Origin: an uncultured Campylobacter sp.
Lineage (GTDB): Bacteria > Campylobacterota > Campylobacteria > Campylobacterales > Campylobacteraceae
Assembly (NCBI GenBank): GCA_963522765.1
Contig: CAUQZM010000001.1
Coordinates: 18,329-82,328, forward strand
DNA length: 64,000 nucleotides
Direction of reading: 5' to 3'
Part shown: in pieces, positions 560 to 57,777 of the stretch
Numbering within the stretch: position 1 is the stretch's first letter
How the letters are laid out: the number at the start of each line of letters is the position of its first letter
The notes under the pieces: model-generated
Told to the model about the DNA's origin: nothing
The model's database searches: none
The model's input: only the letters and a program-made list of their open reading frames with translations
Program-made: the position numbers and the translations under genes

Positions 560-800
560 CTATGTGCTAATAAATATAGCGAGGAGTTAAATTTATAATT
601 GATTTTGCCTTGAACCGCGCGCAACGCTCTCAGAAAATTTTTAAAATTTCAAAGCGTAGTTTAAATTTACAGCCGCAGCTCGGCGCGTGCCAAAGTGCAA
701 GCCGCAGCGCGTTTAAATCCTGCCGCAAACCATGCAGTATTTCAAATTTAAACGCTACCCGGGCTCGGTAAATTTTACCGCGGCGCGATTAAATTTCGTC
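560..800. repeat. Intergenic array of AAATTT/RAATTY-cored short degenerate repeats with GC-rich spacers
   Basis: aaaattt, aaatttc, taaattta, caaattta, taaatttta and taaatttcg recur every 20-40 nt between gccgc/gcggc-rich spacers. No credible ORF. Confidence 0.45.
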
Positions 801-809
801 GCAGCGCGC

Positions 810-2018
810 CTAAGCTTCTATCGCGTATGGGATTTTATCTTTTGCGCCGGCGCCCGCAAAGCCTTTAAGCCGCAGTAGGCAGCTGTCGCAAAGCCCGCAC
901 GCAGCGTCCTCTCGCTCGTAGCAGCTCCACGTAAGCTCTAGCGGCACGCCGATTCTAAGCGCCAGCGAGACGATCTGCGCCTTGCTAAGGTGCACGAGCG
1001 GGGTTTTGATGCGCGGATGAAAGTCGCGGCTCGTGCCCAGATCGAGCGCTCGCTCAAACGCGCCGATGAAGCTCGCGCCGCAGTCGGGATAGCCGCTACT
1101 GTCCTCCTGCACCACGCCGATGAAAATCGCGTCGCAGCACTCCTTCTCGGCGAGCGCGGCGGCGATACTCAAAAACACGCCGTTGCGAAACGGCACGTAG
1201 GTGCTCGGCAGATCCGAAAACACGCTCTCGCCGCTTGGCGGTGAAATTTTATCGCTTCGGCTTGGCGGTGAAATTTGATTGTTTTGGCTTTGAGGTGAAA
1301 TTTCACCTCCTGCGTGCTTGGGTGGAATTTTATCGCCCCGCTGCGGCTCGGCTCCGCTTTGAGGTGAAATTTCGCTACCTTGCAGTGAAATTTTGTCGTC
1401 GCGGACTAAAATTTTACCGCTTTGAGCCGAAATTTTACTACCTTGCGATGAAATTTCACCGTCCCTGAGTGAAGCTTCGCCATCTTGGGTTAAAATTTCG
1501 TCTTTCTGCGCGCAGCCGCCGCTATTTCGCGCCAAATCTGCACTTAGCGGAGCGTCCGCGGGGCTCGTCGAGAAATTTGACGAAGTGAAATTTTGCCCGC
1601 CAATCTCGGCATTAAAAGAATTTACCGCAATAGAATTTTGCCCGTCTAGTTCGGCGACGGAATTTGTCTCGGTAAAATTTAACTCTCCAAGCTCGGCACT
1701 CTTGGAATTTGCCGCGCTGTCAATCTCGGCGCTAGCGGAATTTGCCGCGCCGCAAAGCTCCGCCGCGCCCTTTCTGATCGGCAATGTGCCGTCTGTAAGG
1801 GCGCTGCCGCCGATTTGCGCGATGAAGCGAGCGTCTAAAATCAGCCTCTTTGCGACCCCCAAATCGTCGCAAATTTTACCGAAGCATTCGCGCTCTTTGC
1901 CCATCGTGCGCTGATCGTAGTCAAAGTGCAGCGCCACGATCTCGTAACCTTCGCGCCTCGCGATGTATGCGCAGGTCGCGCTGTCCATGCCGCCGCTGAT
2001 CACGCATAAAGCTCTCAT
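810..2018 (-). CDS. queC: 7-cyano-7-deazaguanine synthase QueC carrying a large internal low-complexity insertion
   Basis: N-terminal PP-loop VISGGMDS. C-terminal TYVPFRNG and the zinc motif [10 protein letters not shown]. The ORF is 402 aa whereas QueC is normally about 220-230 aa. AGGA RBS before the ATG. Confidence 0.9.
1215..1766. repeat. In-frame RAATTY-cored repeat array inside queC (about 180 codons)
   Basis: ggtgaaattt, gtgaaatttc, ggaatttg and agaattttgc units occur every 20-30 nt. Translated as GEISPQS, SKISAQS, DKISLQG, NSASAEI. Three antisense or off-frame ORFs (990..1244, 1235..1468, 1585..1914) stay open across it. Confidence 0.7.
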
Positions 2019-2072: not shown

Positions 2073-2702
2073 ATGATACTTTGCGAACAGCCCTATCCCG
2101 AAATTTTGGACGCTATCACGGCAGAGCTGGGCGGCGGGAACATCGAGCTAATTTTCGTGCGCGGCGAGGAGATGCGGCAGCTAAATGCGCAAACGCGCGG
2201 CATCGACAAGGCGACCGACGTGCTGAGCTTCCCGCTCGATCCCGCGGCGTTTGCGGGCTTCGGCAAGGATTTGAGCGAGGAAAATTCCGCGCATGAAAAC
2301 AGCGGCGGCAAAAATCCATACACTACAAATTCTGCTAGTGAAAATTCAGACACCGCGAATTCTGCGAGCGAAAATTCTAATACCATAAATACCAAAAATT
2401 CCGAGAACGAAAATCCTAACGATGAAAATTTAAAGAGTGAGAATTTTGGCGGCGAGAATTTCGCCCCCGCACTGCTCGGCTCGGTCGTGATAAATTTAGA
2501 CCTCGTAGAGCTGAAAGCCGCGCAGCTGGGGCACGGCAGGGATGACGAGACGGCGCTGCTTTTTACGCATGGCTTGCTGCACGTGCTAGGTTACGATCAC
2601 GAGAGCGACGACGGGCAGATGCGCGCCAAGGAATGCGAGATCATCGAGAAATTTCGCCTTCCAAAAAGCCTGATCGTACGAACGGAGGAAAACGAGGAGT
2701 AG
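2073..2702 (+). CDS. ybeY: rRNA maturation endoribonuclease YbeY with an internal low-complexity insertion
   Basis: ATDVLSFPL and the zinc triad [11 protein letters not shown]. The ORF is 209 aa versus about 140-155 aa typical. RBS agagggg before the ATG. Divergent from queC. Confidence 0.88.
2244..2465. repeat. In-frame GAAAATTC-type repeat array inside ybeY (about 74 codons)
   Basis: gaaaattc[cta], gaaaatcc, gagaattt repeats are translated as ENSA, ENSD, ENSN, ENF. Several other frames stay open across it (2081..2296, 2093..2395, 2116..2319). Confidence 0.65.
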
Positions 2703-2823
2703 GCGCTGTATATCAAAAAAGGGCGAGCAAGGCATGTGCAGCGGCCTAAAATTCTAATCAAATTTTAAAAATACAGATTGGAAAGCAAAAACTGCAAGCC
2801 CAAAACCGCAGCGATAAAAGGAT

Positions 2824-2887
2824 TTTTAGGGTAAATCGCCATGATTTCCCAACCAAAACGTCGCATGCTCGAAATTATCAATCGCAA
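2824..2887 (-). pseudogene. Orphan 3'-terminal remnant of a paralog of the 4716..5297 gene
   Basis: About 64 nt are near-identical to 4743..4807 (ttttagggtaaat[t]cgccatgat[t/c]tcccaaccaaaacgtcgcatgctcgaaatt[a/g]tcaatcgcaa), with a 1-nt deletion. This corresponds to the last ~20 codons (HATFWLGDHGEFTLKDP) of the intact gene. There is no upstream ORF body. Confidence 0.5.
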
Positions 2888-2913
2888 CTGAATGCATTTG
2901 TATGATTAACTAC

Positions 2914-3719
2914 TTAATGGTAAATTTTTGTATTTAAATACAAATTTCTACAAACGGGGGTCTGCGAAACTCCATCCCTAAATTTATTAATTTTAATAGA
3001 AATCGCTTTAATGCCGCCTACTAAATTTATGGAATCGATAAAAAGCAGATAGTCTTCATCTTTATATTTTATCGGTCCGAAATAAATCAGGGTGTCTCCT
3101 GTGATCTTGTTTCGATAATCCTCAAAATCTATCCTGCTATGATATGAATCGCTCGAGGGGTCTTTTATAATCTTACTGCACTCTTGCGGATCTAGAATAT
3201 ACATAAAATTTGCAAAAGACATCTCGTATTGCCGAAAATCTCTATACGTCATAATATACAAAAGCTTATTATCGAATTTATACAATGTAAATCCTCTCCC
3301 CGTAAAGCCGTCCCTAATCGTTTTATTCATATCCATATACCAGCAATCGCCCATATTTTTCTTTAAAATGGGGTTATTGTAATCCGTCGTATCAAAAACC
3401 AGAGGTTTGATATATTTATATTTTTCCACTCGAATAGATCGTCGTAAAAGTCATTGCAAAAGTCTCTTCCTTTTGATAAATGCTCTTCATACTCTTTTTT
3501 GAGCGTTGCATTTCTATCTATTTGCCAAAAGCTAACGGTTTTTCCGTTGAAAGTGGTTTCTCCTTCTACCATACCGGAAGGACTGCTTCTTACTACTTTC
3601 CTATCATTAGCTTTCCATAAAGCTATTTTTAAATCAAAAGGAATTTCCGTATCGCTCGCATCGTTTGCATTCGCAAATAGTACGAATGCGATCATTAAGA
3701 TGAAAATATGAACCCACAT
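2914..3719 (-). pseudogene. Frameshifted tandem paralog of the 3728..4528 secreted protein
   Basis: ORFs 3363..3719 (118 aa) and 2914..3429 (171 aa) align with the N- and C-halves of the 266-aa neighbour. The break follows FEWKNINI: the intact copy reads ggtttgattatattt (4208..4220) and this copy reads ggtttgatatattt (3405..3417), a 1-nt deletion. Confidence 0.75.
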
Positions 3720-3727
3720 AACCGCCC

Positions 3728-4528
3728 CTATCGATAAAGCTTCATGTTTAAGTATGAATTGCTACAAACAGGCATTTGTAAAATACCGTCTTTAAATTTC
3801 CTGATTGCGACGTTTAGTAATTGACCGCTGTGCGTATTGTCGAAATCTATGAAAAGTAGATAGTCTATATCTTTATAACGTATCGGTTCGGCATAAAACA
3901 GACGCGGTTTATATATGATATTGCCCGGAATTTCTAAATTTTCTCTGCTACGAGGATCTTTTATGATTTTACTACACTCTTTGGGATCTAAAATGTAAGC
4001 AAGATTTGCGAAATCATCCGTCTGATATATATAAGGAGTGGTTTTATAAATCATAATATACAAAAGCTTATTATCAAATTTATACAATGTAAATCCGCGC
4101 CCGCTAAAGCCGTCTTTAATCGTTTTATTCATATCCATATACCAACAATCGCCCATATTTTTCTTTAAAACTGGGTTATTGTAATCCGTCGTATCAAAAA
4201 CCAGAGGTTTGATTATATTTATATTTTTCCATTCGAACAGATCATCGTAAAAGTCGTTGCAGAAGTCTCTTTCTTTTGATAAATGCTCTTCATACTCTTT
4301 TTTGAGCGTTGCATTATCTTCTATCGTAAAAAAATAAAAACTCTTGCCGTTAAAGGTAGTTGCACCCCGGATCATAGGTTCGTGAAGAGCTTTTCTTACA
4401 ACTTTTTTATCTTGAATTTTCCATAAAATAGGTTCCAGTTGCCATGGCATCAATGGATGCTTTATATCATCCGCTTTTGCGAACGATACGGCAAACAATA
4501 TCGCTAAAATAAAAGCACGAACTTGCAT
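3728..4528 (-). CDS. Hypothetical secreted protein (266 aa), family not recognised
   Basis: N-terminal signal-peptide-like MQVRAFILAILFAVSFAKADD. AAGGAG RBS (revcomp of 4531..4540). Low GC. A tandem paralog lies downstream. Confidence 0.7.
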   Translation of the reverse strand: MQVRAFILAILFAVSFAKADDIKHPLMPWQLEPILWKIQDKKVVRKALHEPMIRGATTFNGKSFYFFTIEDNATLKKEYEEHLSKERDFCNDFYDDLFEWKNINIIKPLVFDTTDYNNPVLKKNMGDCWYMDMNKTIKDGFSGRGFTLYKFDNKLLYIMIYKTTPYIYQTDDFANLAYILDPKECSKIIKDPRSRENLEIPGNIIYKPRLFYAEPIRYKDIDYLLFIDFDNTHSGQLLNVAIRKFKDGILQMPVCSNSYLNMKLYR

Positions 4529-4715
4529 CCCTCACTCCTTAAAATGAGCTTTTGAAGCCTTAAAAGCGTTTTTCATTACTAACGTTATACGCTTATACAA
4601 CATAATTACTTAATCTAAAGTATAAAATACATTATCATATCCGCACAAATATGAATTTATGCATATACCGCCGATCTATACGGCAGGCTTTCAGTGTTTC
4701 AATTACCGATCACTT

Positions 4716-5297: not shown

Positions 5298-5400
5298 GGC
5301 CTACCGCCGCCAAAATCTATTTTTCTCGCATCAATTCATCGCCCCGTTGCGTAAAATTTTGCGGGTGAAGCTTATGCCGGTAAAATTTTACAAATCGCGC

Positions 5401-8208
5401 TTAGCCGAAGTTTACGGGATCCATATCGATTTCGACCGGCAGATGCTCAAGCGCGCGCGCAGCACTAATCAGCGGCACGTGCGAGCTAGCGCGCAGCAGA
5501 ATTTCAAAGCGAAATTTCGACGCGATATAGGCGATACCGGCCTTACCGTAGCCGATGATCTCGAAGCTCTCGCTCGCCTTCTCTTTCAAACACTGCGCGG
5601 AATTTTCGGCAGGGTTTTCGGTTTCTAAATTTATAAAATTTTGCGCAGCGCCGTTTCTTTCAGGCTTTAAATTTACGCTACCCGCATCCCTGTCGCAAGC
5701 TGAAATTTGCGCGGTGTTTTTTAAATTTGAAGCGTTTTTTTGGGAGTCTAAATTTACATCACCCGCGCGCAAATCCGGGCTTTGAAATTTAAAATTTGAT
5801 ATTTGTTTGCCGCCCTGCTGCACAGAATTTTGTAAATTCAAAGCGCTTAAATTTGCTCTCTTCGCGTCTAGCCCGTCACGCGGTGCAAACGCGCTACTTT
5901 CCGCCTGTTTGTGGCGCAAAAGCTCAAGCGCGGCGTTCATTATTTCGCCCGCCGCCTTTTCGTTTTTATGCGAGATCAGCACGCGCAAAAGCCGCATATA
6001 CGGCGGATAGAGCCCCTCGCGAAACTCTGCCTCGTCGCGCAAAAAATCGTCGTAGTTTTCGATATAATCCCTAAAAAAGCCGCTCTGGCGCGTCTGTATG
6101 ACGACCCTGCCCTGCCCCGAGCGACCTGCGCGGCCAGCCACCTGCATCGCAAGCGCCAGCGTCTTCTCGCGCGCCCTAAAATCGGGATAGCTCAGATGCT
6201 CGTCGATCCCCATTATCACCGCAAGATCAACGCCATGGTAATCGTGCCCCTTACTAAGCATCTGCGTGCCTACCAGAATGTCGATTTTATGGGCGTTGAA
6301 GTTATTTAGCAGTGCCTCGAGCTTGCGCTGCGTGGTGATCTCATCGCGATCAAATTTTGCGATGCGGGCGCTTGGGAAACGCGCCGCAAGCTGTGCCGCA
6401 AGCTCGCCGGTGCCGATCTTGCGCGCCTGCATCACCTCGCCGCCGCAGTTTTCGCAAGACGCCTTGTAAAACGTACTAAAGCCGCAGTAATGGCACTTTA
6501 GCGCCGCAGCGTCCGCGTGATAACTCATCCCGACGGCGCAAAACGGGCAGCGCACGATCTGCCCGCAGTTTTCGCAAACCATATATTTATAATTCGCGCG
6601 CGTCGGCAAAAACACGACCGCCTGCTTGTCCGCTTCGAGGCTGCGCCCGATCTCGGTTAAAATTTTAGGGCTCAGCCCCGTCTCGCTCTCGTCGAAAATG
6701 AAGCGTTTGGCGCTGCTAAAATAGGTGCCGCGCAGGCGGAAGTGCGGCTGCTTCGCGTAGGTGCTAAGTGCAGGCGTCGCAGAGCCCAAAACCACGCGAA
6801 TGCCGAGCTTTTTGCCGACGAAAATCGCGGCATCGCGGGCATTTAGACGCGGTGCGGCGGCCGATTTATAGCTGTCGTCGTGCTCCTCGTCCACGACGAT
6901 GAGGCCCAGATCGCTAAAGGGCAAAAACAGCGCCGAGCGGGCGCCCGCGATGAGCCTGATCTCGCCTGCATTAAATTTTTCTAAAATTTCGCGCTTTTTC
7001 TTAGGCGAAATTTTGGAGTGCCAGACGCCGAGCCGCTCGCCGAAATAGCTCTGTAGCCGCTTCGTCATCTGCGGCGTTAGCGAAATCTCGGGCATCAAAA
7101 ACAGCGCCTGCTTGCCCGCAGCGAGCGTCTGCGCAATCAACGCGATATAAATTTCGCTCTTACCGCTGCCCGTATCGCCGAAGATCAGCGACGTCTCATT
7201 AGCTTCGGTAAATTTACGCGCTTGCTCCTGCGCGGGGGTTAGGTTTGGAATTTTGTCGATCTGAAGCGGAGATAGCGGCTGCGAAATGGGGCTTTGCGCG
7301 GTAGCGTCTAAATTTTGAATTGAGATGGAATTTTGCGCTGAAGTAGGATTTTGAATCGAAATGGAATTCTCTCCCTCAGTAAAATCCCGCTCTTGGGTCG
7401 AATTTTGCGCGATAGTGAAATTTTGTTTGTGTGCAGGATCGGGAACGGCAACAAAATTTATGGCGGTCTTCATGGCGACAGAATTTTGAATCAATGCGAA
7501 ATTTTGAATTGAGGCGGAATTTTGCTCATCGACAAAGTCCCTCTCTTGGATAGAATTCTGCGCGGCGGTAGAATTTAATGCCGAATTTTGAAAGATAAGA
7601 TTTTGCGCCTGCTTTAAATCTTGCTTTTGCGTGGAATTCGACGCGATGACGGAATTCATGACGGTAACAGAATTTTTTGAGATAGTAGAATTTCTCGTCA
7701 ATGCAAAATTCTGGATTGAGGCGGGATTTTGTATGGCACTAAAGTCATCGTCGAGCGCAGAATTTTGTGCGGTGATGGAATCCTGCTCGGAAATAAAATT
7801 TTGTTCGAAGGTAGAAGTTTGCTTGCAAGCGGAGGTTGGCTTACTAACGGGAATTTGCTCGCAAACACAATTCCGCTCGGTCGTAGGATGCTCCTGCAAA
7901 TTCCGCAAATCCTGCGCCGTCTCGCTCGCAGGCTCGAAAATCCCAAATGCAACGCCCTTTTCGCAAACATAGTAATGCGCGATAAAATTTGCAAGCGTAC
8001 TTTGAAACAAGCTAAATTTAAGCTGCGAAATTTCAGAAATTTCCTTGGTTTTGAAGCTCGGCTTTGAAACCTCACGCAGGATCACGGTGGATTTGACGCT
8101 CGATTTTACGGGAACGGATACGATTTGATAAGCTGGGATTTTAAAATTTGAACTATAAGTAAGCGGCTTTAGGCTGGCGCCCAAAACCGCAACTTCATAA
8201 TAGAGCAT
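5401..8208 (-). CDS. priA: Primosomal protein N' / replication restart helicase PriA with two low-complexity insertions
   Basis: Walker A GDTGSGKSE, VVDEEHD, and a Cys-rich zinc region CENCGQIVRCPFC...CHYCGF...CENCGG. The ORF is 935 aa, well above usual PriA lengths (E. coli 732 aa). Confidence 0.9.
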   Translation of the reverse strand: MLYYEVAVLGASLKPLTYSSNFKIPAYQIVSVPVKSSVKSTVILREVSKPSFKTKEISEISQLKFSLFQSTLANFIAHYYVCEKGVAFGIFEPASETAQDLRNLQEHPTTERNCVCEQIPVSKPTSACKQTSTFEQNFISEQDSITAQNSALDDDFSAIQNPASIQNFALTRNSTISKNSVTVMNSVIASNSTQKQDLKQAQNLIFQNSALNSTAAQNSIQERDFVDEQNSASIQNFALIQNSVAMKTAINFVAVPDPAHKQNFTIAQNSTQERDFTEGENSISIQNPTSAQNSISIQNLDATAQSPISQPLSPLQIDKIPNLTPAQEQARKFTEANETSLIFGDTGSGKSEIYIALIAQTLAAGKQALFLMPEISLTPQMTKRLQSYFGERLGVWHSKISPKKKREILEKFNAGEIRLIAGARSALFLPFSDLGLIVVDEEHDDSYKSAAAPRLNARDAAIFVGKKLGIRVVLGSATPALSTYAKQPHFRLRGTYFSSAKRFIFDESETGLSPKILTEIGRSLEADKQAVVFLPTRANYKYMVCENCGQIVRCPFCAVGMSYHADAAALKCHYCGFSTFYKASCENCGGEVMQARKIGTGELAAQLAARFPSARIAKFDRDEITTQRKLEALLNNFNAHKIDILVGTQMLSKGHDYHGVDLAVIMGIDEHLSYPDFRAREKTLALAMQVAGRAGRSGQGRVVIQTRQSGFFRDYIENYDDFLRDEAEFREGLYPPYMRLLRVLISHKNEKAAGEIMNAALELLRHKQAESSAFAPRDGLDAKRANLSALNLQNSVQQGGKQISNFKFQSPDLRAGDVNLDSQKNASNLKNTAQISACDRDAGSVNLKPERNGAAQNFINLETENPAENSAQCLKEKASESFEIIGYGKAGIAYIASKFRFEILLRASSHVPLISAARALEHLPVEIDMDPVNFG
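5566..5905. repeat. In-frame repeat array 2 inside priA (C-terminal region, about 113 codons)
   Basis: aaattta, gaaattt, aaatttg, agaatttt cores. Translated as NLQNS, ISNFKFQS, VNLDSQKNASNLKN, AQNFINLETENPAENS. Antisense ORFs 5555..5785 and 5796..6074 are open. Confidence 0.6.
7261..7932. repeat. In-frame repeat array 1 inside priA (between the N-terminal domain and the helicase core, about 224 codons)
   Basis: About 20 units of [ag]gaatt[tc]tg[ca] occur every 21-27 nt by eye. Translated as QNS/QNF/QNL-rich peptide. Frames 7631..7972(+), 7729..8067(+) and 7698..8075(-) are all open. Confidence 0.75.
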
Positions 8209-8212
8209 TTAG

Positions 8213-15585: not shown

Positions 15586-15828
15586 ATGCAAATTATCGCG
15601 ACCGTAGTTCTCATAATAGCCGCTATTTTGTACGTATCGTCGTTTAAAGACAAAAAGAAACGCTCCGCGAATTTAGCGGCTTGCTTGTTTTTTATGACGT
15701 TTACGTATTGCGTGCAATTCGGCGTAGGGGACAAGAACTACGTCCGAGCGGGCGGCGCGGCGCTGATAGTCTTTTTTATCTTTGCGCTTGCTTTTTTCGA
15801 GCTTTATTTCTGGGGTGACGAGCTTTAA
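15586..15828 (+). CDS. Possible small membrane protein (80 aa)
   Basis: Two or three hydrophobic segments, but no clear RBS and it sits in a repeat-rich gap. Weak call. Confidence 0.3.
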   Translation: MQIIATVVLIIAAILYVSSFKDKKKRSANLAACLFFMTFTYCVQFGVGDKNYVRAGGAALIVFFIFALAFFELYFWGDEL

Positions 15829-15839
15829 AATTCAAAATT

Positions 15840-16225
15840 CATTGAAATTTTATCGCGGCGTTTTGTGAGCGATCAAATTAGCGCCCGAACGTATAATTTT
15901 AAGTGACATGAAATCAAAATCGGGCGCTTTTGGTTATGGAATTTAAACATATAACCTATCCGCAGCTTATCCGCCGCAAAGGCTGCGGTAGGTTTAAATT
16001 TAGCCTCTTTACAGCTTGTTTGCGGCGATTTAAAATTTCGTAACTTCGGATATGCAAGCCGCTGTTTTAAAATTTCGGCAAGTTTTAAATTTTAAATTTG
16101 CGCTTGCCGACTGCGCCGTTTTAGTTAAATTTAACGGCGCGGCGCAGAGCTTGCGAGCGCGAGATGATTTAATTTTACGACTTCAACTCCGCGCGAGCTT
16201 TGGCGGAATAAAATTTAGCGATCAA
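15840..16225. repeat. Intergenic AAATTT/RAATTY-cored repeat array
   Basis: gaaatttta, ggaattta, taaattta, taaaatttcg, aaaatttcgg, taaattttaaattt, taaatttaac, aaaattta. Also contains the inverted repeat ccgcagc(15960)...gctgcgg(15988). Confidence 0.45.
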
Positions 16226-16229
16226 ATTG

Positions 16230-19398: not shown

Positions 19399-19399
19399 A

Positions 19400-20510
19400 T
19401 TTAGCTATTGCGACGCGACGAGGGATTTTTACGAATTTGGGTATAAATATACCACTGCCTTCCTCTTGCGTCGCAGGATTTTGCAAAGCGAGCTTTGCGC
19501 GCAAAATCTCTGCAAACCAAGCTGTGACGCGGAATTTGCTCTGCGGCGCAGATTTAATCCAGCGGCGCGCAGGTTCTTGCTTTGCAGGGTAAAATTTGCC
19601 CCGCTGCGAAACGATAAAATTTACGGCGCGATTTGGCGTTGCGGCGGAGTCTGCTCTGCGGTACGTCTGTTTTGCGGGGCAGGTTTTGGAGTGCATCTGT
19701 TTTGCGGCGGCCGATAAAATTTAAAAAGAGGGCGTAGCCAAATTGCGAGCGTGCGGCTAAATTTAAAGAGGGCAAACGATTAAATTTCAGGCGCCGCGGC
19801 TGGATTTTAAAATTTATGGATAAAATTTTAAAGCGCGAAATTTTGCTTCGCAAAATTTTATCTGAGATCATGGGCTGTTTATGAGCGCGAACACGCGAAA
19901 TTTCGTAAAGCAAAATTTCGGCGGGCTAAATTTACCGCCGCGATCTTTAAATTTGCGCGACTAAAATTTACCGACTTGCGCGAGCCGCCGTTCGTCACCG
20001 ATCTTTTGCCGGTTTAAATTTAGCTTTGCAAAATTTGGCTCGCAAACTTAGCGACACAGGCGAGACGGCAAATTTTGCCTCACAAAATTTGAGCCGCAAA
20101 TTTAAACTACAAATTTAAACCGCGATCCGTGCGTTAAAAATTTAAAAGCTAAATTTGAAGTCTAGTGAGCGGGTCCGCCACACGAATGCTCGTATAAATT
20201 TCAAGCACATAATGCTCATATTGAAATTTTGCGACTGAGCGTGTATGTGAAGCGCTCGTTAAAATTTCAAAGTCGAGGCGCATGCAAGCGCACGCGTTAA
20301 AAATTTTAGAGCCGAAGCATATGCGACCGCTCGCGTTAAAATTTTAAAACTAAGGCGTATTACGGCGGCGATTGCGTTAAATTTAAAACCGATCGGCGGT
20401 CGCGCGAAATTTTAGGATTGATCCATTCGCGAAGCCGTGCGTCATCGATCTATTCGCAAAGCCGCGTCCATAGATTTTTTCGCAGCGCCGCACGCCGGAA
20501 TTTTAGAGCA
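19400..20510. repeat. 1.1 kb non-coding tract packed with RAATTY-cored repeats, including a degenerate ~40-bp periodic sub-array (20240..20420)
   Basis: aaattt or gaattt cores occur every 15-40 nt throughout. gcgttaaaa(t)ttt[tc]a[ag]a recurs at about 20131, 20257, 20294, 20333 and 20374. Only short overlapping ORFs in several frames. Confidence 0.6.
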
Positions 20511-20533
20511 GTTTGGGGAATGCAAGGAGAGGG

Positions 20534-22324: not shown

Positions 22325-22329
22325 TTTAG

Positions 22330-23380
22330 GAATTTGGCAAAGTTGCGTAGATTTGATAAAAAATTCTGCGCTCTGCCAAGCTTCGCCGAATTTGCCGGGG
22401 TTTTCGCTCGTAGTTGCTTGGCAAATTTTATCTTTGCCGTGCGTCTTACGTAAGAATTTCGCTCGATACGCCGCTTTTGCTAAGAATTTTATCTACAGCA
22501 CGCTCGCCACTTTTACAATTACTTTGCTATGCAACGTCGCTTTCGCAAGAAACCCTAGCAAAACGTCGCTTTCAAAGGCGAGCTTCGCCGACGATAACGC
22601 TGCCACTGATAGGAATTCTTTATAAAAATGCTGCTTTCGCGCGAATTTCAGCAAATAGCGCGGTCTTTGCGCAAAATTCCTCTCGCTCTCTTCGCGTAAA
22701 ATTTCATCTTCATCGGATGCCTCTAGCGTCATACTGCTGTACTTTGTCGTCTCCGCGAAAAATTTTATCTTTGGCGCGCTCGCTGCTTACGCAAGAAGTT
22801 TGGCTAGGACGATGCTGCTTCTGCTGGGATACCGCCTGCTTCGTGGGTTTATAGAATTTTACTTAGTCACGTTGCCGCTGAGATAATTCCGCCCTGCCTT
22901 ACTACTTCTGTGGAAATTTTACCCCGCTTCGGCAAGCGCAATTAAAAATTTACTTTGCCTTAATACGGCAATGTGAAATTTTGCCCGTGCGGCGCAGCTA
23001 CATAAAATTTCAACCTCTGCAAAATTCCGCCTCAAAATTTGCATCCTTGCTTATTTTCACGAAAGGCTGCAAAATTTTGCCGCCTCGCGCGCTGCTGCAC
23101 TAAATGCACGCAAGATGGAATTTACCGCCGCAAGTTTCTGCGCAGAATTTCGTGAGGCTAAATTTTACCGCTGCGAAAAATTTCAGTCGCTCATAGCAGG
23201 CGTCTGCGGCGCGATAAATTCCAAATTAGAGCTTCAAGCAGGCTTCGCTTCTTGCCAAATTTTAACTACCTTGGTCGCCGCAAAACTAGAAATTTACAAA
23301 ATCGCTTTATGAAATTTTGCAGCGTCGCGCGGTAAGATTTTAAAATAAACGCCTGAGCGGCAAGGCAGAATTTAATGGAT
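22330..23380. repeat. 1.05 kb non-coding tract of RAATTY-cored repeats
   Basis: gaatttcgc, gaattttatc, gaatttcagc, aaaattcc, aaaatttca, gaaatttta, aaaattttgcc, ggaattta, agaatttcg and others occur about every 25-30 nt. aaattttatctttg[cg]c[gc]... recurs at about 22425 and 22765. ORFs here overlap in several frames and lack an RBS. Confidence 0.55.
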
Positions 23381-23381
23381 T

Positions 23382-24085: not shown

Positions 24086-26050
24086 CTACTCAAACCGTAT
24101 GATGTTTACCAAAACCCCGTCGAAAACGTCTTGCTTAAAAAGCTTGATCTCGCGCACGATATCTGCGTTATCATCGTCGATAACGCCGTTTTTGACGAGG
24201 CTGTCCTCGATGAGCTTAAAGATAAAGGCGTGGTTGCTGACGTCAGAGATACCGCTTTTAAAGCCCATTTCAAGGCGTACCGGCACGCCTATGTGCACGC
24301 CGCGCAGATCCTTGGCGATGTAAAGATCAGCGATCGTGCGCACCATCTTTTTCGCCATTTGGTAGCTCGCCGTGGACGACAAAATATCATTAAGACCGAA
24401 ATTCTCCATCAAAAGCGGAATACGAACGCGCGCCAAAACCCCTTCGCCAGGCTCGCTCGCGCTCTTTTTCAAAAACGAAATTTTAATCCTATGCGCGATG
24501 CCTATGAAACGCGGCTTAAGCTCGATGAGCCTAGCTTTAGACGCTTGCGGTAGCGAGATAGGACGCGAAGTGCTTGCAATAGGCAGAGCCTGCGGACGTC
24601 CCGGCAGGCGCGCGCGCTCTTTCGCAGGCGCTTTGCGCGTAGGCTTGCCATAGAAATTTACGGGCTTAGTCGCAAAAGTTGATTCGCTCCCAAAAGCAGC
24701 AGACGCGGGCTCATCACCAAGCGCCCCCTCCGCCATAGAAGAAGCAAACGTAGAATTCTCACCCGTTAACGCAGACTGCGCGGATTGCTCAAATTCGGGC
24801 GCAAATTTATTTCCCGCTTGCAGCGGCAAATTTAAAGGGTGCCACTCTTGTGCAGAGATTTTCTGCTCTAAATTTTGCTCGTCGGAATTTTTTAGCGCGT
24901 AATTTTGCCCTTTTGCCAAGCACATTGAATCCTCACCGACTAAATTCTCATCTTGAGGCGCGAATTCCAAGGCATTTTCTAAGGCAAAATTTGCGGCGTG
25001 GCGGCTAGCAAAATTAGCGCTTTGCCCCTTAGAAAACTCGGAGCCTTGAGGCCCACAATCATTTGCGCACTTTATATCAAGCGCGGAATTTGCGAAGGTG
25101 GAATTTTTTGATGCAGAGCCTTGCGCCGTAGAATTTTTACTTCTTAAGTTCGCGCCCTGCTCTGCTAAAAACAAATTTTCAACCGTAAAATTCTCTGCTT
25201 GCGCCATAAAATTAGAATTTTGCGCCTCAAATGCGGAATCTTTCACGAGCGCAAAGCTTTGCGCGGAAATAAAATTTCGCGATGCAGGAATGAAGCTTTG
25301 CCCTTTGGCAGAATTCGCAGGTGCAGAGCTTTGCGGCATAAATTTGTCACTCCTCGCATTTTCGCTCTCTTCGAAACTAGCAGCAAGCCCCACACTCATG
25401 TCATCCTGCGCGGCGTCATTTTGCAAAATTAAATTCTCGCGCGCCGTATCCCACGCGGTATCTACGCAAAATTCCGCTCGAGCCGCACCATAAAATTCTG
25501 CTCGCGAAGCATCTTGAAATTCTGCTCGTGAAGCAAAATCTCGCGCACTCTGAGCGCTACGCGCAGAAAAATCTCGCTCGCCGCACCTTGCGTTTGTAGC
25601 ATACGAGGTCTTTGCTAAGCTGCCGCCAGCCTCGGACGAAACCGCGCCCGAATCTCCGCCGCAAAAGCTACCAAAATCGCAGGCGCCGTCAAACTCCGCA
25701 TAGCCATCCGCCGCGCGGAGACGATCTGTGCGGGCTTTCTTTTTGGGCGTAGAAGGGAGTGTGAGCCTGCCTGCAAGCTCGCGTCCGCCGGAGTTTAAAA
25801 TCCCAAAAATTCTAGCTCTAAAGCGCTCGAACTGCTCGCCACTGAGCGAAATTTTGTCGTTTAGGCTCTGCACGCCGAAGTCTGCAGCGGTAAAATTTAC
25901 GATCGCTCCGTCCCTACTCGCGACGCGCACGCGACCTTTGACCGAGCCTTTTAGCTTAAAATCGCTGCCTGCGAGAATTTTTTTCATCAACTCCTTCGGA
26001 TTGTAGGGCATTTTAGCGCTCGCCAAAAACCACTTCATTAAATTTAGCAA
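24086..26050 (-). CDS. Hypothetical protein: ~100-aa N-domain, ~400-aa low-complexity repeat insert, ~148-aa C-domain. Start uncertain (TTG 26050, ATG 26038, or ATG 26011 right after the upstream stop)
   Basis: Long ORF immediately downstream of, and overlapping, the M23 peptidase gene. The flanking domains have normal composition. The C-domain has a faint RusA-like pattern (see findings). Confidence 0.65.
   Translation of the reverse strand: MLNLMKWFLASAKMPYNPKELMKKILAGSDFKLKGSVKGRVRVASRDGAIVNFTAADFGVQSLNDKISLSGEQFERFRARIFGILNSGGRELAGRLTLPSTPKKKARTDRLRAADGYAEFDGACDFGSFCGGDSGAVSSEAGGSLAKTSYATNARCGERDFSARSAQSARDFASRAEFQDASRAEFYGAARAEFCVDTAWDTARENLILQNDAAQDDMSVGLAASFEESENARSDKFMPQSSAPANSAKGQSFIPASRNFISAQSFALVKDSAFEAQNSNFMAQAENFTVENLFLAEQGANLRSKNSTAQGSASKNSTFANSALDIKCANDCGPQGSEFSKGQSANFASRHAANFALENALEFAPQDENLVGEDSMCLAKGQNYALKNSDEQNLEQKISAQEWHPLNLPLQAGNKFAPEFEQSAQSALTGENSTFASSMAEGALGDEPASAAFGSESTFATKPVNFYGKPTRKAPAKERARLPGRPQALPIASTSRPISLPQASKARLIELKPRFIGIAHRIKISFLKKSASEPGEGVLARVRIPLLMENFGLNDILSSTASYQMAKKMVRTIADLYIAKDLRGVHIGVPVRLEMGFKSGISDVSNHAFIFKLIEDSLVKNGVIDDDNADIVREIKLFKQDVFDGVLVNIIRFE
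24650..25725. repeat. In-frame RAATTY-cored repeat array (about 350 codons) inside the 654-aa ORF
   Basis: gaattct, caaattc, aaattta, aaattttg, ggaatttt, gaattcc, aaaatttg, ggaatttg, agaatttt and others. Translated as NS/NF/QN/AQ-rich peptide (AQNSNFMAQAENFTVENL...). ORFs 25098..25493 and 25199..25432 are open on the other strand. Confidence 0.7.
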
Positions 26051-27998: not shown

Positions 27999-28074
27999 GT
28001 CTCGTTAGCTCAGTTGGTAGAGCATCTGACTCTTAATCAGGCGGCCGTAGGTTCGAATCCTACACGGGACACCA
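27999..28074 (+). tRNA. tRNA-Lys (anticodon CTT)
   Basis: 76 nt. Acceptor gtctcgt pairs with acgggac (one G-U pair). D-arm agctcagttggtagagc. Anticodon stem-loop tctga-ctCTTaa-tcagg. T-arm gtagg-ttcgaat-cctac. Encoded CCA. Closely parallels E. coli tRNA-Lys. Confidence 0.92.
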
Positions 28075-55206: not shown

Positions 55207-56111
55207 TATTTAAACCTTTCGATCTGGTGCTGCACGACATTTGCGATCTCCTGCCACGAAACATTAGGTTCCAAGGTCGAGATATTTTTGAAATTCTGCG
55301 CGTTCCAGCTCATAAAATTTGCAGGATCGACACTTTGAGCCAAAAACCTAACTTCATAATGCAAGTGCGGACCGGTGCTGTAGCCGGTATTACCGCTATA
55401 GCCGATAAGATCGCCCTTTTTAACCCAAGAACCAGGCGTTACGACCGCGGAGCTAAGGTGGCCGTAGCGGGTTTCAAAGCCATAATTGTGCGATAAAATC
55501 ACTAAAATTCCATATCCGCTGCCGCTACCGCCTGCAAACTGCACGAAGCCCTCTGCCGTCGCAAACACCGGAGTGCCCTCACTCGCTCGCAAGTCGATGC
55601 CGTGGTGCATCCTCATAACGCCGCTGATTGGATGAGTGCGCATCCCAAAAGGGCTAGTGATCCCGCGATACTGCATCGGAAGTCCATTAGGCACAGCGCT
55701 AAGAATCGCGCTCGCCGTTTTTTCGCTAGCTGCAATGTGCGCGCCGGAGCCCTTTTTACGCTCCTTTTTCATCTCATTCATCGCAAGCATTACCTGGATA
55801 TCACTATCCAGCCCGCCTCCATCGTCTTCGCGTCCGTCCAGCTTGGCAAGCACCTCCTCATTTTTGCCCTCAAGCGCGATATTTTGCTCTTTAAGCGCGA
55901 GATTTTCGGCGTATAGGGTTTTGTTTAGCTCCTTTAAATTTGAACGGTCACTCGCGAGTTTAAATATCGCAAAAAACAAAACAAGCAGAAAAATTACAAA
56001 AAACGCGGATAAAATTTTAAGCTGAAATCTAAAATTTTCGCCGAAATACAGCGTCTTGGTGCCAAAGTGATCGCTTAGGGTAAGTTTAGTTTTAGCCACG
56101 GCACGCCTCAA
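55206..56111 (-). CDS. M23 family metallopeptidase with an N-terminal TM helix and coiled coil (EnvC/Csd-like)
   Basis: HHGIDLRA and GPHLHYEV. The coiled coil is LKELNKTLYAENLALKEQNIALEGKNEE. Confidence 0.85.
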   Translation of the reverse strand: MRRAVAKTKLTLSDHFGTKTLYFGENFRFQLKILSAFFVIFLLVLFFAIFKLASDRSNLKELNKTLYAENLALKEQNIALEGKNEEVLAKLDGREDDGGGLDSDIQVMLAMNEMKKERKKGSGAHIAASEKTASAILSAVPNGLPMQYRGITSPFGMRTHPISGVMRMHHGIDLRASEGTPVFATAEGFVQFAGGSGSGYGILVILSHNYGFETRYGHLSSAVVTPGSWVKKGDLIGYSGNTGYSTGPHLHYEVRFLAQSVDPANFMSWNAQNFKNISTLEPNVSWQEIANVVQHQIERFK

Positions 56112-57777
56112 GCCATAAAATAAAATTTTCTACCAAATGAAACGAGCCGAAAACCAAATACTCCTCCTCCGCTCTAAGCTCGCCACGAAACGGCGAATGC
56201 GGAATTTTAAGCGCGTCAAGCGCACGGGTTATCGCCTCTGCCGCCATTTCGCGATCCGCAACCTCGTAGCTAAAAATCTCCACGCGCTCCACTACAGGCG
56301 CTAAAGTCCGCAGCACCGCGGCTACGTCCTTATCGGCAAAAGCATTGTAAATCAGCACGATCTTTCTGCCCCCGTAGATTTCGGTAATTTCGCGGGCTAC
56401 TTGCTGTGCCGCAAGCTCGTTGTGTCCGACATCTACGCGTAAATTTGGCGCCAAAACTTCCATCCTGCCGCGTAAATTTAGAGGTGGCAGCTGCGAAATT
56501 TCAAATTTTAAATTTAAAAATTTCATCGCAGCAAGCGCTAGAGCTAAATTTGAAATTTGAAATTTAGGCAGATTATTGTGCGCGCAAAACTCCGCGATCT
56601 GCGCTTGCTCGCTCTTGCTTAAAAGCTCTGCTGCAAACCTCAAATGAGTTCCTTTTTGCTCTGCGATCTGCTGCGCGATACGAAGCGGAACTTCGCTCAT
56701 CTCGTCGCTTAAAATCGCCTCCTTATCCATCGTAATGAGCTTGGTGTGGGCGATCTGCTCTAGATTGCATCCTAGCATGCCCAAATGATCGGTGCCGATC
56801 GGTGTAAAAAGCGACAGCGTGCGACCAAAGCTCGATGTAGCATCAAACTCGCCGCCCATCCCAGCCTCGATCACGCAGTAATCGCAATCCCTAAAAAGCA
56901 CTGCTGCCGCAAGCGTGAGATACTCAAAATACGACAGGCTATCTTTAAACTCCGCGGGCAAGCTCTCTTGCAAAAACTCATGCGCGAAATCAAGCTCCTC
57001 ATCCGTAGCATCGCGCCCTAACGAAATGGGAAGCAAGCTTTGAGCGGGTTTGAAATTTGATCCTAATGGGGATTTAAAATTTTGCTCAGACGAGAAATTG
57101 AAATTTTGCTCAGACGGCGATCTGAGATCTTGCAAATTCCATAAATTTTGTGTAGAAGCAGAATTTTGCGTATAGATCGAATTTCGCGCGATGGAATTCT
57201 GCTCGCTACAAAAATTTTGCGTGGTAGAAACGAAGCTTTGCAGGGCGGAATTCTGCTCGCTATGCAAATCCTGCGTGGCGTAATTTTGCAAATTAGAAAT
57301 AGAAATTTGTGAGGCTGAATTTTCTCTGTTCGCAAAATTTTGCATTTTCTCGAAATTTTGTCTTTCCGTAAAATTTGACGCCGAAGCGGAATTTTGCTCG
57401 TTTTTAAAATTTGAAGCGTCGGAATTCAACGCAGAAACGGGACTTTGCGCGATACGTCCGCCTAGATAGATGCGCTCGTTGAGCTTAAAAACGTGCGGAC
57501 TGGTGTAGTGCCCGACGCTAAAGCCCGCTGCGGCGATCGCGTTAGCCAAAAACCTCCCGGTGCTGCCCTTGCCATTGGTGCCGATAATCTGAATGACGTT
57601 TTTGAGCGGAATTTTATCTTTAATGGCGGCATACGCCCGCGGGAAGCGCTCGTAGTCGATTTTTTTGTAATAAATCGGGCGATTTTGCAAAAATTCTTTA
57701 ATGCTGCGCCCGCCCAAGTCTGAATCCCCTAATCGCAAGCGCCGAAATAAACTCGTCAAACGCCTGCGCGGAGGCAT
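56092..57777 (-). CDS. folC: Folylpolyglutamate synthase / dihydrofolate synthase with an internal low-complexity insertion. Start uncertain (80-nt overlap with lptE)
   Basis: P-loop IIGTNGKGST, HYTSPH and EAGMGGEFDATS. The ORF is 561 aa versus about 400-420 aa typical. Confidence 0.85.
   Translation of the reverse strand: MPPRRRLTSLFRRLRLGDSDLGGRSIKEFLQNRPIYYKKIDYERFPRAYAAIKDKIPLKNVIQIIGTNGKGSTGRFLANAIAAAGFSVGHYTSPHVFKLNERIYLGGRIAQSPVSALNSDASNFKNEQNSASASNFTERQNFEKMQNFANRENSASQISISNLQNYATQDLHSEQNSALQSFVSTTQNFCSEQNSIARNSIYTQNSASTQNLWNLQDLRSPSEQNFNFSSEQNFKSPLGSNFKPAQSLLPISLGRDATDEELDFAHEFLQESLPAEFKDSLSYFEYLTLAAAVLFRDCDYCVIEAGMGGEFDATSSFGRTLSLFTPIGTDHLGMLGCNLEQIAHTKLITMDKEAILSDEMSEVPLRIAQQIAEQKGTHLRFAAELLSKSEQAQIAEFCAHNNLPKFQISNLALALAAMKFLNLKFEISQLPPLNLRGRMEVLAPNLRVDVGHNELAAQQVAREITEIYGGRKIVLIYNAFADKDVAAVLRTLAPVVERVEIFSYEVADREMAAEAITRALDALKIPHSPFRGELRAEEEYLVFGSFHLVENFILWLEACRG
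57022..57447. repeat. In-frame RAATTY-cored repeat array inside folC (about 140 codons)
   Basis: gaaattt, aaaatttt, gaaattg, caaattcc, agaatttt, cgaatttc, ggaattct, aaaattttg, ggaattct, taattttg, gaatttt and others. Translated as EQNSA, QNF, TQNSAS. Off-frame ORF 57063..57335 is open. Confidence 0.7.

Follow-up and report, generated by a model that had tools for sequence, protein, structure and literature searches.

A favoured RAATTY hexamer, rather than a mobile repeat, recurs in intergenic arrays and in-frame gene inserts of a Campylobacter gracilis-type genome

Why does the same short sequence recur at close intervals both in non-coding tracts and, in frame, inside housekeeping genes of a Campylobacter? 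The window analysed here, a 64-kb stretch of a Campylobacter gracilis-type genome, was described in an initial annotation as carrying one RAATTY-cored repeat family, for which a selfish or slippage-driven repeat, an enriched recognition site and DNA-bending or nucleoid-protein sites were all suggested. We find that the recurring entity is a single hexamer, R-AATT-Y (mostly AAATTT), without a repeat element around it. As the hexamer stays fixed amid drifting DNA and is densest in long non-coding tracts and in dispensable, rapidly evolving inserts, it is a favoured short site rather than a mobile repeat.

The enrichment itself is real: the window contains 654 RAATTY sites, whereas 100 dinucleotide-preserving shuffles gave 239±15 and never more than 278. 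AAATTT is the top-ranked hexamer of the window (n=428, 14.7 times the mononucleotide expectation). Counting as a run at least five RAATTY sites with gaps of no more than 45 nt, 169 of the 654 sites lie in runs, compared with 42±14 under random placement at equal density. The computed runs match the locations named in the initial annotation (four non-coding tracts, queC, ybeY, two in priA, folC and a 654-aa ORF), and its estimate of about 20 cores in the first priA array compares with the 23 counted at 7210-7903. The features, with their runs, are as follows.

501..809, no strand: non-coding RAATTY array from the 3' end of queC to the start of the adjoining minus-strand gene
1221..1757, minus strand: QueC low-complexity insert, aa 88-266 of a 402-aa protein (gene 810-2018); run 1244-1743
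2250..2468, plus strand: YbeY insert, aa 60-132 of a 209-aa protein (gene 2073-2702); run 2282-2497
5494..5826, minus strand: PriA insert 2, aa ~795-905, separating helicase core and C-terminal domain; run 5600-5854
7219..7926, minus strand: PriA insert 1, aa ~95-330, in the linker from the N-terminal DNA-binding region to the helicase core (priA 5401-8208); run 7310-7711
15828..16229, no strand: non-coding RAATTY array between convergent genes; run 15996-16132
19399..20512, no strand: long non-coding RAATTY array upstream of a LysE-type exporter gene; run 19717-20412
22325..23381, no strand: long non-coding RAATTY array between the convergent genes dapE and ogt; run 22914-23317
24641..25693, minus strand: low-complexity middle of the 654-aa ORF, aa ~120-470 (ORF 24086-26050); run 24753-25220
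56430..56570, minus strand: FolC C-terminal RAATTY cluster, very dense, inside the conserved part
57040..57450, minus strand: FolC insert, aa ~110-246 of a 561-aa protein (gene 56092-57777); the folC runs lie within 56441-57427

Per kb, there are 32 RAATTY sites in the in-frame inserts, 27 in the intergenic arrays, 11 in other GC-normal DNA and 7.8 in low-GC blocks. The arrays look like a repeat family because the hexamer reaches a density of about one per 31-37 nt in unconstrained DNA. They are indeed denser than their surroundings, but the enrichment is not confined to them, as 5-10 sites per kb are found window-wide and the excess extends to the genus. The low-GC blocks, in which enrichment is 1.55 times the Markov expectation as opposed to 3.31 times, are probably acquired DNA; lower enrichment has similarly been described for USS and for RAATTY in C. 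fetus prophages.

Across strains, the DNA sequence of the hexamer stays constant in every location. Variability at the central AATT is 3-10 fold lower than at other A/T sites among 12-32 strains, be it in inserts, in intergenic arrays or at synonymous positions of conserved domains. Within the inserts (columns without a gap in any strain and 12 nt or more away from the nearest gap), pi was 0.044 in cores and 0.113 at other A/T sites (p=3e-5), with values of 0.097, 0.007, 0.017, 0.019, 0.032 and 0.097 at R, A, A, T, T and Y, respectively; the conservation footprint is exactly R-AATT-Y, with a sharp 4-nt trough. At third codon positions of conserved domains, A/T pi was 0.022 in cores (n=144) versus 0.139 outside (n=1072, p=7e-13). 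The codons AAA, GAA, AAT and ATT were 6-13 times less variable in cores than outside, while TTT, which bears the Y position, varied equally in both. The outer positions vary just as purine or pyrimidine across strains (A 1222, G 252, C 1 and T 1 at R; T 1129, C 339, A 3 and G 2 at Y), while the background transition:transversion ratio is about 3:1. Among 156 tetramers at unconstrained sites AATT had the lowest pi. The four intergenic arrays, 12-32 metagenome contigs forming an independent set, and C. concisus (0.050 versus 0.169, p=3e-14) all replicated its conservation. The footprint, the synonymous-site control and the tetramer ranking all favour enrichment of a recognition site among the suggestions of the initial annotation. 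We found no literature report of RAATTY conservation at synonymous sites, of constant RAATTY density in GC-richer species or of in-frame arrays.

The non-coding arrays were compared individually. The array at 501..809 carries 25.9 RAATTY per kb, with an AATT pi of 0.012 against 0.118 at other A/T sites (p=0.006, 7 strains). The array at 15828..16229 measures 389-409 nt with 25-30 RAATTY per kb in 11 strains (AATT pi 0.049 versus 0.127 at other A/T sites), and that at 19399..20512 measures 961-1264 nt with 22-29 per kb in 16 strains (0.048 versus 0.174, p=9e-12). The latter showed no 3-nt diversity periodicity and no conserved ORF in these 16 strains, and no Rfam match. The array between dapE and ogt, compared in 29 strains, spans 803-1089 nt at 21-28 RAATTY per kb; 82% of its cores are at the same aligned place, and AATT pi is 0.033 versus 0.098 (p=6e-5). 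The long non-coding arrays keep their position and a similar length in all strains compared, and this retention could reflect an array function of its own rather than passive filler.

Only the C. gracilis complex has the inserts, which are sited in loops or linkers. QueC, which has 221-228 aa outside the complex, carries its insert between positions equivalent to residues ~83 and ~87 of the solved structure 2pg3, and its homologues of 379-418 aa differ by whole-unit indels. YbeY has 133-154 aa in other genera and species versus 209-245 aa in the complex, and its match to the TIGR00043 profile is broken into two stretches; the TIGR01499 match of FolC is also split, the protein being ~160 aa longer than the profile. 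PriA has 611-623 aa in most Campylobacter species versus 796-955 aa in the complex. Its helicase core (aa 340-750) matches residues 182-609 of E. coli PriA, and insert 2, with 12 cores in its run, is exclusive to the complex among the PriA sequences aligned. The 654-aa ORF had no Pfam or NCBIfam match and belongs to no known family; RAATTY clusters and a 24-nt tandem repeat occupy its middle part. Tandem periods are 27 and 33 nt in queC, 15 nt in ybeY and 18 nt in both PriA insert 1 and folC. Several length indels are flanked by core-containing direct repeats, and the priA gene of locus L011 is without most of insert 1. The inserts expand and contract via slippage or unequal recombination between adjacent cores, and the tandem periods and whole-unit indels bear out the local slippage or tandem duplication already mentioned in the initial annotation. 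Both the long intergenic tracts and the low-complexity inserts of the C. gracilis complex are nearly free of other constraint.

All Campylobacter lineages sampled keep the hexamer far above compositional expectation. The ratio of observed RAATTY to a first-order Markov expectation reaches 2.98 for the C. gracilis complex, 2.81 for C. concisus, 2.59 for a 46%-GC Campylobacter group and 1.5 for C. ureolyticus-like loci, compared with 0.63 in 20 loci of Sulfurospirillum, Sulfurimonas and Arcobacter. AAATTT occurs ~6-10 times per kb in nearly all Campylobacter loci at GC contents of 27-48%, with one exception (locus L035, 4.2 per kb). C. concisus has the same RAATTY enrichment and a PriA without inserts; the motif alone fails to explain array building in C. 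gracilis. In C. concisus the outer hexamer positions are conserved too and GAATTC is avoided, so the favoured word differs within the genus.

m6A methylation of RAATTY is known from C. jejuni, C. coli, C. lari and C. fetus, and a methylase homologue of C. hyointestinalis reportedly recognises the same motif. Methylatable positions occur about every 60 bp in C. jejuni, whose strain IA3902 has 27,514 positions of the motif, and DNA uptake in this species needs CtsM-methylated RAATTY (Beauchamp et al. 2017, as cited in PMC10046745, PMC8468864 and PMC8627207). By analogy with these species, a CtsM or uptake role may be proposed for RAATTY in C. gracilis, where a GspG-like pseudopilin gene (8213-8695) is the sole competence hint in the window. 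The hexamer may be favoured because a conserved orphan N6-adenine methyltransferase of Campylobacter, called CtsM in C. jejuni, recognises it. In that case RAATTY would be maintained and would accumulate either by molecular drive, through uptake-biased recombination, or by selection for methylated sites. Its density would peak where coding constraint is weakest, and its upkeep would be the same as that described for the USS and DUS of Pasteurellaceae and Neisseriaceae and for HIP1 of cyanobacteria. We consider it reasonably probable that RAATTY is an iterated site of the USS/DUS or HIP1 kind, a probable CtsM target, that saturates slippage-grown unconstrained DNA.

It is also possible, if unlikely, that no benefit is involved. 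Methylated RAATTY might mutate 5-10 times more slowly or be restored by methylation-linked repair, so that the arrays would simply be old DNA without constraint that has reached mutational equilibrium. Variability falls 3-10 fold, a drop of the same order as the enrichment (3-5 fold over Markov), and variants inside AATT share the frequency spectrum of neutral A/T variants (singletons 29% versus 23% at other A/T sites, p=0.41), with which a lower mutation rate is as compatible as selection or drive. HIP sequences have been proposed to originate in connection with a methylase, and Elhai is said to have proposed methyl-directed repair that restores the HIP1 site. However, we know of no such repair system in Campylobacter, the conservation of HIP1 has been read as a sign of selection rather than biased repair, and a non-coding stretch of ~1 kb between convergent genes, kept in 29 strains, is unexpected for useless bacterial DNA.

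We regard as rather less plausible a role of RAATTY as the binding site of a chromosomal protein, such as a nucleoid protein or one that reads methylated or hemimethylated sites, with the arrays serving as chromosome-organising platforms independent of uptake. The exact, sharp hexamer footprint is what sequence-specific recognition would give, 82-86% of array cores are at the same aligned place, and a role in nucleoid structure has been proposed for HIP1. Against this, no candidate protein was identified, and the arrays are distributed irregularly along the window, leaving 26-56 kb without any. Core spacing is without 10-11 nt phasing (vector strength <0.1), so phased A-tract curvature is unlikely, and in C. 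gracilis the outer positions accept G/C freely, unlike an A-tract. The DNA-bending suggestion of the initial annotation, in its phased A-tract form, finds no support in these two observations.

How the cores are read within the inserts bears on whether the peptides themselves could be selected. All three codon phases are in use, in agreement with the claim that the core is translated in different phases. The phase xxR AAT TYx (x-N-S/F/L) dominates in priA, folC, ybeY and the 654-aa ORF; it is used by the 10 cores of the ybeY insert. The insert peptide of FolC repeats QNS/QNF/SNF. The queC insert begins in this phase (phase 2) and its second half is filled by xRA ATT Yxx (phase 1; E/K-I-S/L). 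RAA TTY (K/E-F) occurs as well: the middle of the 654-aa ORF has cores in phases 0, 1 and 2, and the FolC C-terminal cluster (9 sites in 125 nt, 72 per kb) uses all three. Most arrays have one or two stop-free frames rather than the three or four nearly stop-free frames claimed initially, several other frames containing 3-9 stops; the short overlapping ORFs across the arrays are a by-product of GC-rich spacers and a stop-free core.

It is very improbable that the inserts were selected as functional N/S/Q-rich disordered linkers, with the DNA motif as a by-product of codon choice. The coding frame is open in all 12-15 strains despite 2-9 stops per array in other frames, and phase 2 (x-N-S/F) is the commonest. 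However, diversity is equal at the three codon positions (pi 0.178, 0.177 and 0.191 in the queC insert), and the insert peptide is therefore unconstrained. Synonymous AAT to AAC and ATT to ATC changes, which would destroy the motif, are avoided, although these codons vary freely elsewhere; the motif is conserved in non-coding arrays too, queC employs two phases, and most of PriA insert 1 is deleted in L011. The codon-position diversity, the synonymous avoidance and the non-coding arrays largely contradict protein-level selection, and the open reading frame and the hexamers are the only constraints detectable within the inserts.

An RPE-like or MITE-like selfish element, inserting in frame in genes and also between genes, is scarcely credible: like-looking DNA does occur both between genes and inside them, where it is in frame and free of stops, and single-strand folding of the arrays exceeds that of shuffles (z -3.2 and -5.7), but such folding is expected of any set of self-complementary hexamers, matches between arrays amount to two cores and a few bases with no common unit longer than ~30 nt, the sequence logo returns to background composition beyond ±2 nt of the core, flank complementarity is at chance level with no correlated palindromy, unit lengths differ by array (15, 18, 21, 24, 27, 33 and 39 nt), and isolated hexamers in conserved domains are equally conserved. 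The missing consensus, non-palindromic flanks and differing unit lengths rule against the RPE-like repeat proposed initially.

The favoured-site reading can be set beside several known systems. Rickettsia palindromic elements (RPE) likewise occupy tolerated surface positions of housekeeping genes in frame and have intergenic copies, but they are dispersed copies of a palindromic consensus of 100-150 nt, whereas the arrays here share nothing longer than 6 nt and their flanks are not palindromic. Plasmodium falciparum, with its compositionally extreme genome, carries Asn-rich low-complexity inserts in housekeeping proteins; these too are lineage-specific, length-polymorphic, made by slippage, placed in enzyme loops and under little or no protein-level constraint, although here a GC-rich background is punctuated by one conserved AT hexamer instead of following a general genomic bias. 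HIP1 (GCGATCGC) is similarly a short palindrome, hyper-abundant throughout a clade and conserved within and between ORFs. It has been tied to orphan methyltransferases, with a methylation-dependent boost to natural transformation reported. HIP1 differs in being a GC-rich 8-mer with far greater over-representation (15-300 fold) and in having no described in-frame arrays; the 10-90 kb long-range periodicity reported for it compares here with a window of 64 kb. The DNA uptake sequences USS (Pasteurellaceae) and DUS (Neisseriaceae) are short, strongly over-represented words found in several reading frames of coding DNA. They concentrate in genes and positions of low conservation, seldom occur in newly acquired genes and make the peptides that they encode more frequent. 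RAATTY repeats this pattern in its codon phases and region-dependent density, but USS and DUS are 9-12 nt long, non-palindromic, unmethylated and present at ~1 per kb, whereas RAATTY is a 6-nt palindrome, methylation-dependent and present at 10-30 per kb, and in-gene arrays of 100-240 codons in housekeeping genes are not known for them. Finally, while methylation and uptake dependence have been shown solely for the CtsM signal of C. jejuni and the evidence here is conservation and enrichment, the two agree in hexamer, in degeneracy (free R and Y around a fixed AATT), in genus and in high density.

AAATTT is the most frequent hexamer in the window (428 copies, 14.7 times the mononucleotide expectation), and the six-base site to which it belongs, RAATTY (R-AATT-Y, each copy being a core), has 654 copies, 2.7 times the 239±15 found in dinucleotide-preserving shuffles. 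Runs of at least five sites with gaps of no more than 45 nt contain 169 of these copies, when random placement would give 42±14. The runs fall where the initial annotation had located arrays, both in non-coding tracts and in frame within queC, ybeY, priA (inserts 1 and 2), folC, and a 654-aa ORF, and the arrays are irregularly spaced along the window. Profile matches of the window ORFs bear out the gene names queC, ybeY, priA, and folC and the GspG-like pseudopilin, and profile searches assigned the 654-aa ORF to no known family.

Features of the window to which the text refers (window coordinates)
501-809: intergenic array
2703-5400: low-GC block (35%) with three paralogous ORFs (2914-3429, 3728-4528, and 4716-5297)
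8213-8695: GspG-like pseudopilin gene
8778-9779: psd, phosphatidylserine decarboxylase gene
15828-16229: intergenic array
19399-20512: intergenic array, first 1-kb tract
22325-23381: intergenic array, second 1-kb tract, between convergent dapE and ogt
27999-28074: tRNA-Lys
28466-50314: low-GC (28-35%) Wzy-type polysaccharide locus
56441-56565: RAATTY cluster in folC

RAATTY is densest in the in-frame inserts, with 32 sites per kb, followed by the four intergenic arrays (27), the other GC-normal DNA (11), and the low-GC blocks (7.8). When expressed relative to Markov expectation, the excess is 1.55 in the low-GC blocks and 3.31 in the rest of the window. This weaker excess, which includes the polysaccharide locus, is consistent with more recent acquisition of the blocks. 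Weakly constrained sequence is denser in the site and probably acquired low-GC DNA is sparser, as would be expected of an uptake signal. The polysaccharide locus encodes Wzz, an initiating sugar transferase, ManC, several GT1/GT4 glycosyltransferases, a Wzy_C protein, and a heparinase II/III-like protein. The three paralogous ORFs of the smaller block match no Pfam or NCBIfam family and vary in length among strains; the same block carries direct repeats pairing 3243-3563 with 4045-4366 (82-93%) and 2823-2890 with 4743-4810 (88%).

Two further observations concern individual genes. The folC cluster holds nine RAATTY sites in 125 nt (72 per kb) in all three phases, is built as a 7-nt tandem of AAATTTC/AAATTTG, and lies in the conserved C-terminal part of the gene, outside the insert. 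The psd product has 333 aa compared with a 267-position profile; about 60 of these residues (aa ~108-170, about 9270-9458) form a low-complexity insert with few RAATTY sites, so the motif-dense state is not general to lineage-specific inserts.

The initial annotation had proposed that the constraint acts on DNA and not on protein. This central inference holds, and R-AATT-Y is exactly the word under constraint. Diversity across strains (pi) was compared in 10-15 genomes of the C. gracilis complex, using columns that had no gap in any strain and lay 12 nt or more from the nearest one. Within the inserts, RAATTY positions have a pi of 0.044 compared with 0.113 for other A/T positions (p=3e-5). 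By core position the values are R 0.097, A 0.007, A 0.017, T 0.019, T 0.032, and Y 0.097, such that the footprint drops sharply over four bases below a surrounding background of 0.10-0.22. The strains carry A 1222 times, G 252 times, and C and T once each at R, and T 1129 times, C 339 times, A three times, and G twice at Y; background substitutions show approximately three transitions for each transversion. This pattern, with AATT at 0.007-0.032 and R/Y at about 0.097, mirrors the R-AATT-Y specificity of CtsM, the C. jejuni orphan m6A methyltransferase.

The same constraint is visible outside the inserts. At A/T third-codon positions of the conserved domains, pi is 0.022 in the motif and 0.139 outside it (p=7e-13). 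In a same-codon control, AAA, GAA, AAT, and ATT vary 6-13 times less within the motif, whereas TTT, which bears the degenerate Y, is no less variable there. Among 156 tetramers scanned at unconstrained sites, AATT has the lowest diversity (0.024 compared with a mean of 0.126), and each of the four non-coding arrays shows its constraint. In a separate, independent sample of 12-32 metagenome contigs, 14.8% of AATT sites segregate compared with 40.5% of other A/T sites, and a C. concisus replicate gave 0.050 versus 0.169 (p=3e-14). Sites are therefore held between genomes at otherwise free positions, a property of uptake signals.

The two 1-kb intergenic tracts illustrate this upkeep. The first was present in all 16 strains sampled and the second in all 29; across strains they measure 803-1264 nt with 21-29 sites per kb, and 82-86% of the window's cores in them are RAATTY at the same aligned place in the strains. 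Rfam and tRNA scans returned no match in the non-coding arrays, and their sole hit was the tRNA-Lys gene. Coding potential of the long arrays was rejected, as their diversity has no 3-nt periodicity and no ORF is conserved. The earlier statement that the arrays are nearly free of stops in three or four frames is right only in part, and the many short ORFs called over them are artefacts.

Within genes, the cores fall in each of the three codon phases, which confirms the initial observation of different phases, and queC changes phase in the middle of its insert. The lengths of three housekeeping proteins and the diversity of their inserts are as follows.

Protein length and insert diversity in the C. 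gracilis complex
QueC: 356-418 aa, 221-228 aa elsewhere; insert diversity at codon positions 1/2/3 in queC, 0.18/0.18/0.19
YbeY: 209-245 aa, 133-154 aa elsewhere; insert diversity in ybeY, 0.12/0.10/0.15
PriA: 796-955 aa, about 611-623 aa elsewhere; insert diversity in priA, 0.12/0.12/0.17

Insert diversity equals or exceeds the third-position diversity of the domains (0.11-0.13). Since it is the same at all codon positions, the peptide is not under selection and only the open frame is kept. Orthologue comparison, which had been suggested as a means of scoring length variation, showed whole-unit indels (7, 9, 14, and 21 aa) together with substitutions in the inserts, while the domains are almost invariant in the complex. 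The indels measure 21, 27, 30, 36, 42, 72, and 84 nt, and several are flanked by core-containing direct repeats. Insertion points were taken from alignments to solved structures and not from AlphaFold2. In QueC, the insert falls between residues ~83 and ~87 of a solved structure of this enzyme; PriA insert 1 lies upstream of the helicase core and insert 2 ahead of the C-terminal domain. A poor AlphaFold2 model of QueC, built from a shallow alignment (mean pLDDT 36), predicts most of the insert to be without secondary structure. In one genome of the complex (L011), most of PriA insert 1 is absent. PriA of the 46%-GC Campylobacter group (L018-L029) also has a shorter, N-rich low-complexity insert of 80-130 aa at about aa 95-200, which occupies the same linker as insert 1 and has no sequence similarity to it. 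The PriA linker appears to be a recurrent permissive insertion site.

PriA, QueC, and their neighbours share 95-98% protein identity with genomes labelled Campylobacter gracilis or 'uncultured Campylobacter sp.', and an identical QueC sequence is present on a 353-kb metagenome scaffold. The next relatives, at ~65% protein identity, are C. ureolyticus-like genomes and the 46%-GC group, followed by C. concisus (~62%) and by Sulfurospirillum, Sulfurimonas, and Arcobacter (~52%). Almost all Campylobacter loci, with GC contents from 27% to 48%, have AAATTT at ~6-10 per kb, one locus (L035) being the exception at 4.2 per kb; in 20 sister-genus loci this hexamer occurs at 1-2 per kb, as expected. Relative to first-order Markov expectation, RAATTY stands at 2.98 in C. 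gracilis, 2.81 in C. concisus, 2.59 in the 46%-GC group, 1.5 in C. ureolyticus-like genomes, and 0.63 outside Campylobacter. The over-representation is therefore clade-specific, as in uptake signals, at 2.6-3.0 times in three Campylobacter groups versus 0.63 in sister genera. Because the enrichment is genus-wide, the arrays are a local extreme of a property of the genus, and they are conspicuous in C. gracilis because this lineage combines a GC-rich background with much unconstrained DNA.

Locus L035 (uncultured Campylobacter sp., 36% GC) has a much weaker excess, with RAATTY at 4.9 per kb and 1.3 times Markov expectation. One form of the site, GAATTC, is nearly missing from C. concisus (L033-L059; 5 copies against an expected 154) and under-represented in the 46%-GC group (12 against 72), and the C. 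gracilis complex (window and L001-L014) has it about as often as expected (172 against 164). This scarcity suggests EcoRI-type restriction pressure in only some Campylobacter lineages, and the favoured word in the two depleted groups is accordingly nearer to AAATTT than to RAATTY.

Four species, C. jejuni, C. coli, C. lari, and C. fetus, are reported to have an orphan N6-adenine methyltransferase whose site is RAATTY, and documented methylation is confined to them; a methylase homologue recognising RAATTY is reported in C. hyointestinalis. In C. jejuni the enzyme is CtsM, and uptake is restricted to RAATTY-methylated DNA (Beauchamp et al. 2017, as cited in later papers). In our data RAATTY is enriched and not avoided, with no cognate restriction pressure visible, as for the target of an orphan methylase. 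Of the readings offered initially, that of a recognition site is supported at the sequence level by the over-representation, the upkeep at free positions, and the exact R-AATT-Y footprint, whose degeneracy suits a methylase-type site better than an A-tract. By extension from the other species, the hexamer in C. gracilis may be favoured as the target of a Campylobacter orphan m6A methylase or as an uptake mark. The mechanism we consider most likely is an iterated hexamer, linked to a methylase or to uptake, that fills unconstrained, slippage-prone DNA to saturation; such DNA would include translated but dispensable loops of housekeeping proteins. No DNA methyltransferase was found among the annotated ORFs of the 64-kb window, and its sole pointer to competence is the pseudopilin gene, a hint from a putative role. 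The match of this gene is limited to the N-terminal methylation motif and GspG N-terminus (aa 1-62), and the remainder has no family match in Pfam or NCBIfam. In the incompletely covered literature, nothing on competence in C. gracilis was found.

A low mutation rate at the site would also preserve AATT, and the frequency spectrum of AATT variants in the metagenome contigs fits this reading and selection or drive alike. Slippage accounts well for the form of the inserts, which have tandem periods of 15-39 nt, unit-length polymorphism, no protein-level constraint, and positions in loops and linkers. The initial suggestion of a selfish element resembling the Rickettsia palindromic element (RPE) is rejected. 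RAATTY does occur in frame within ORFs as well as between genes, as RPEs do, but this is not specific to that family. A shared RPE- or MITE-like consensus of ~100 nt or more was not found: the best inter-array matches span 27-37 nt at 63-78% identity and mainly comprise two cores whose spacing is the same in both arrays, and the flanks show a preference only at ±1-2 nt (T-A...T-A), with background composition further out. No palindromic or terminal inverted-repeat unit was found either, and an extended palindrome around the core was rejected, as flank-pair complementarity at offsets 1-7 equals marginal expectation (all z <1.5); R and Y are chosen independently of each other within sites. The inverted repeats detected in arrays are pairings between cores. 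Arrays fold as single strands more strongly than shuffles because they contain many self-complementary hexamers, which we judge trivial. Tandem unit lengths differ by array (15, 18, 21, 24, 27, 33, and 39 nt), and it is this difference, with the lack of shared consensus and of flank palindromy, that rules against an RPE or MITE. The proposal of DNA bending is unsupported, as the cores in intergenic arrays and inserts lack the helical phasing of A-tract or curved DNA (vector strength <=0.098 at periods 10, 10.5, and 11; p >0.09).

If RAATTY is indeed linked to CtsM, the methylated mark for uptake in C. jejuni would be a genus-wide force and not the quirk of one AT-rich species; it would hold one hexamer at ~8-12 per kb in most lineages sampled, from 27% to 48% GC, with selection or drive visible at synonymous sites and proteins shaped by it. 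A bolder and rather unlikely extension is that the arrays are selected motif reservoirs and not passive filler. They would act as dense platforms of methylated RAATTY favouring uptake or recombination of surrounding core genes, or recruiting a protein that binds the methylated site, and would have grown as rising GC in the C. gracilis lineage left coding DNA with fewer AT hexamers; some would be embedded in essential genes as translated disordered loops, safe from loss by gene deletion. In that case, inserts of 70-240 residues in housekeeping proteins would for the first time be traced to a DNA uptake or methylation signal. Housekeeping proteins here are 50-320 residues longer than their orthologues, with a cause unrelated to protein function. 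Because all but the hexamer and the open frame drifts in an insert, constraint on DNA can be told apart from constraint on protein with unusual clarity in the C. gracilis arrays. The arrays are natural fragments for asking how RAATTY density affects uptake, recombination, and chromosome organisation, and their length polymorphism makes them potential strain-typing markers for an oral pathogen.

Within the incompletely covered literature, the methylome and uptake papers do not treat RAATTY conservation, its constant density independent of GC, or in-frame arrays, nor are these features mentioned in the C. gracilis genome announcement. Among known systems, the site resembles the uptake sequences USS/DUS and the cyanobacterial palindrome HIP1 in its clade-specific excess, its upkeep at free positions, its use of several reading frames, its density peak where constraint is lowest, and its lower numbers in probably acquired low-GC DNA. 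With HIP1 it further shares the form of a short palindrome, hyper-abundant clade-wide and conserved within and between ORFs. HIP1 is reported to be distributed with a periodicity of 10-90 kb; the stretch analysed here spans 64 kb, and the arrays are placed irregularly in it.
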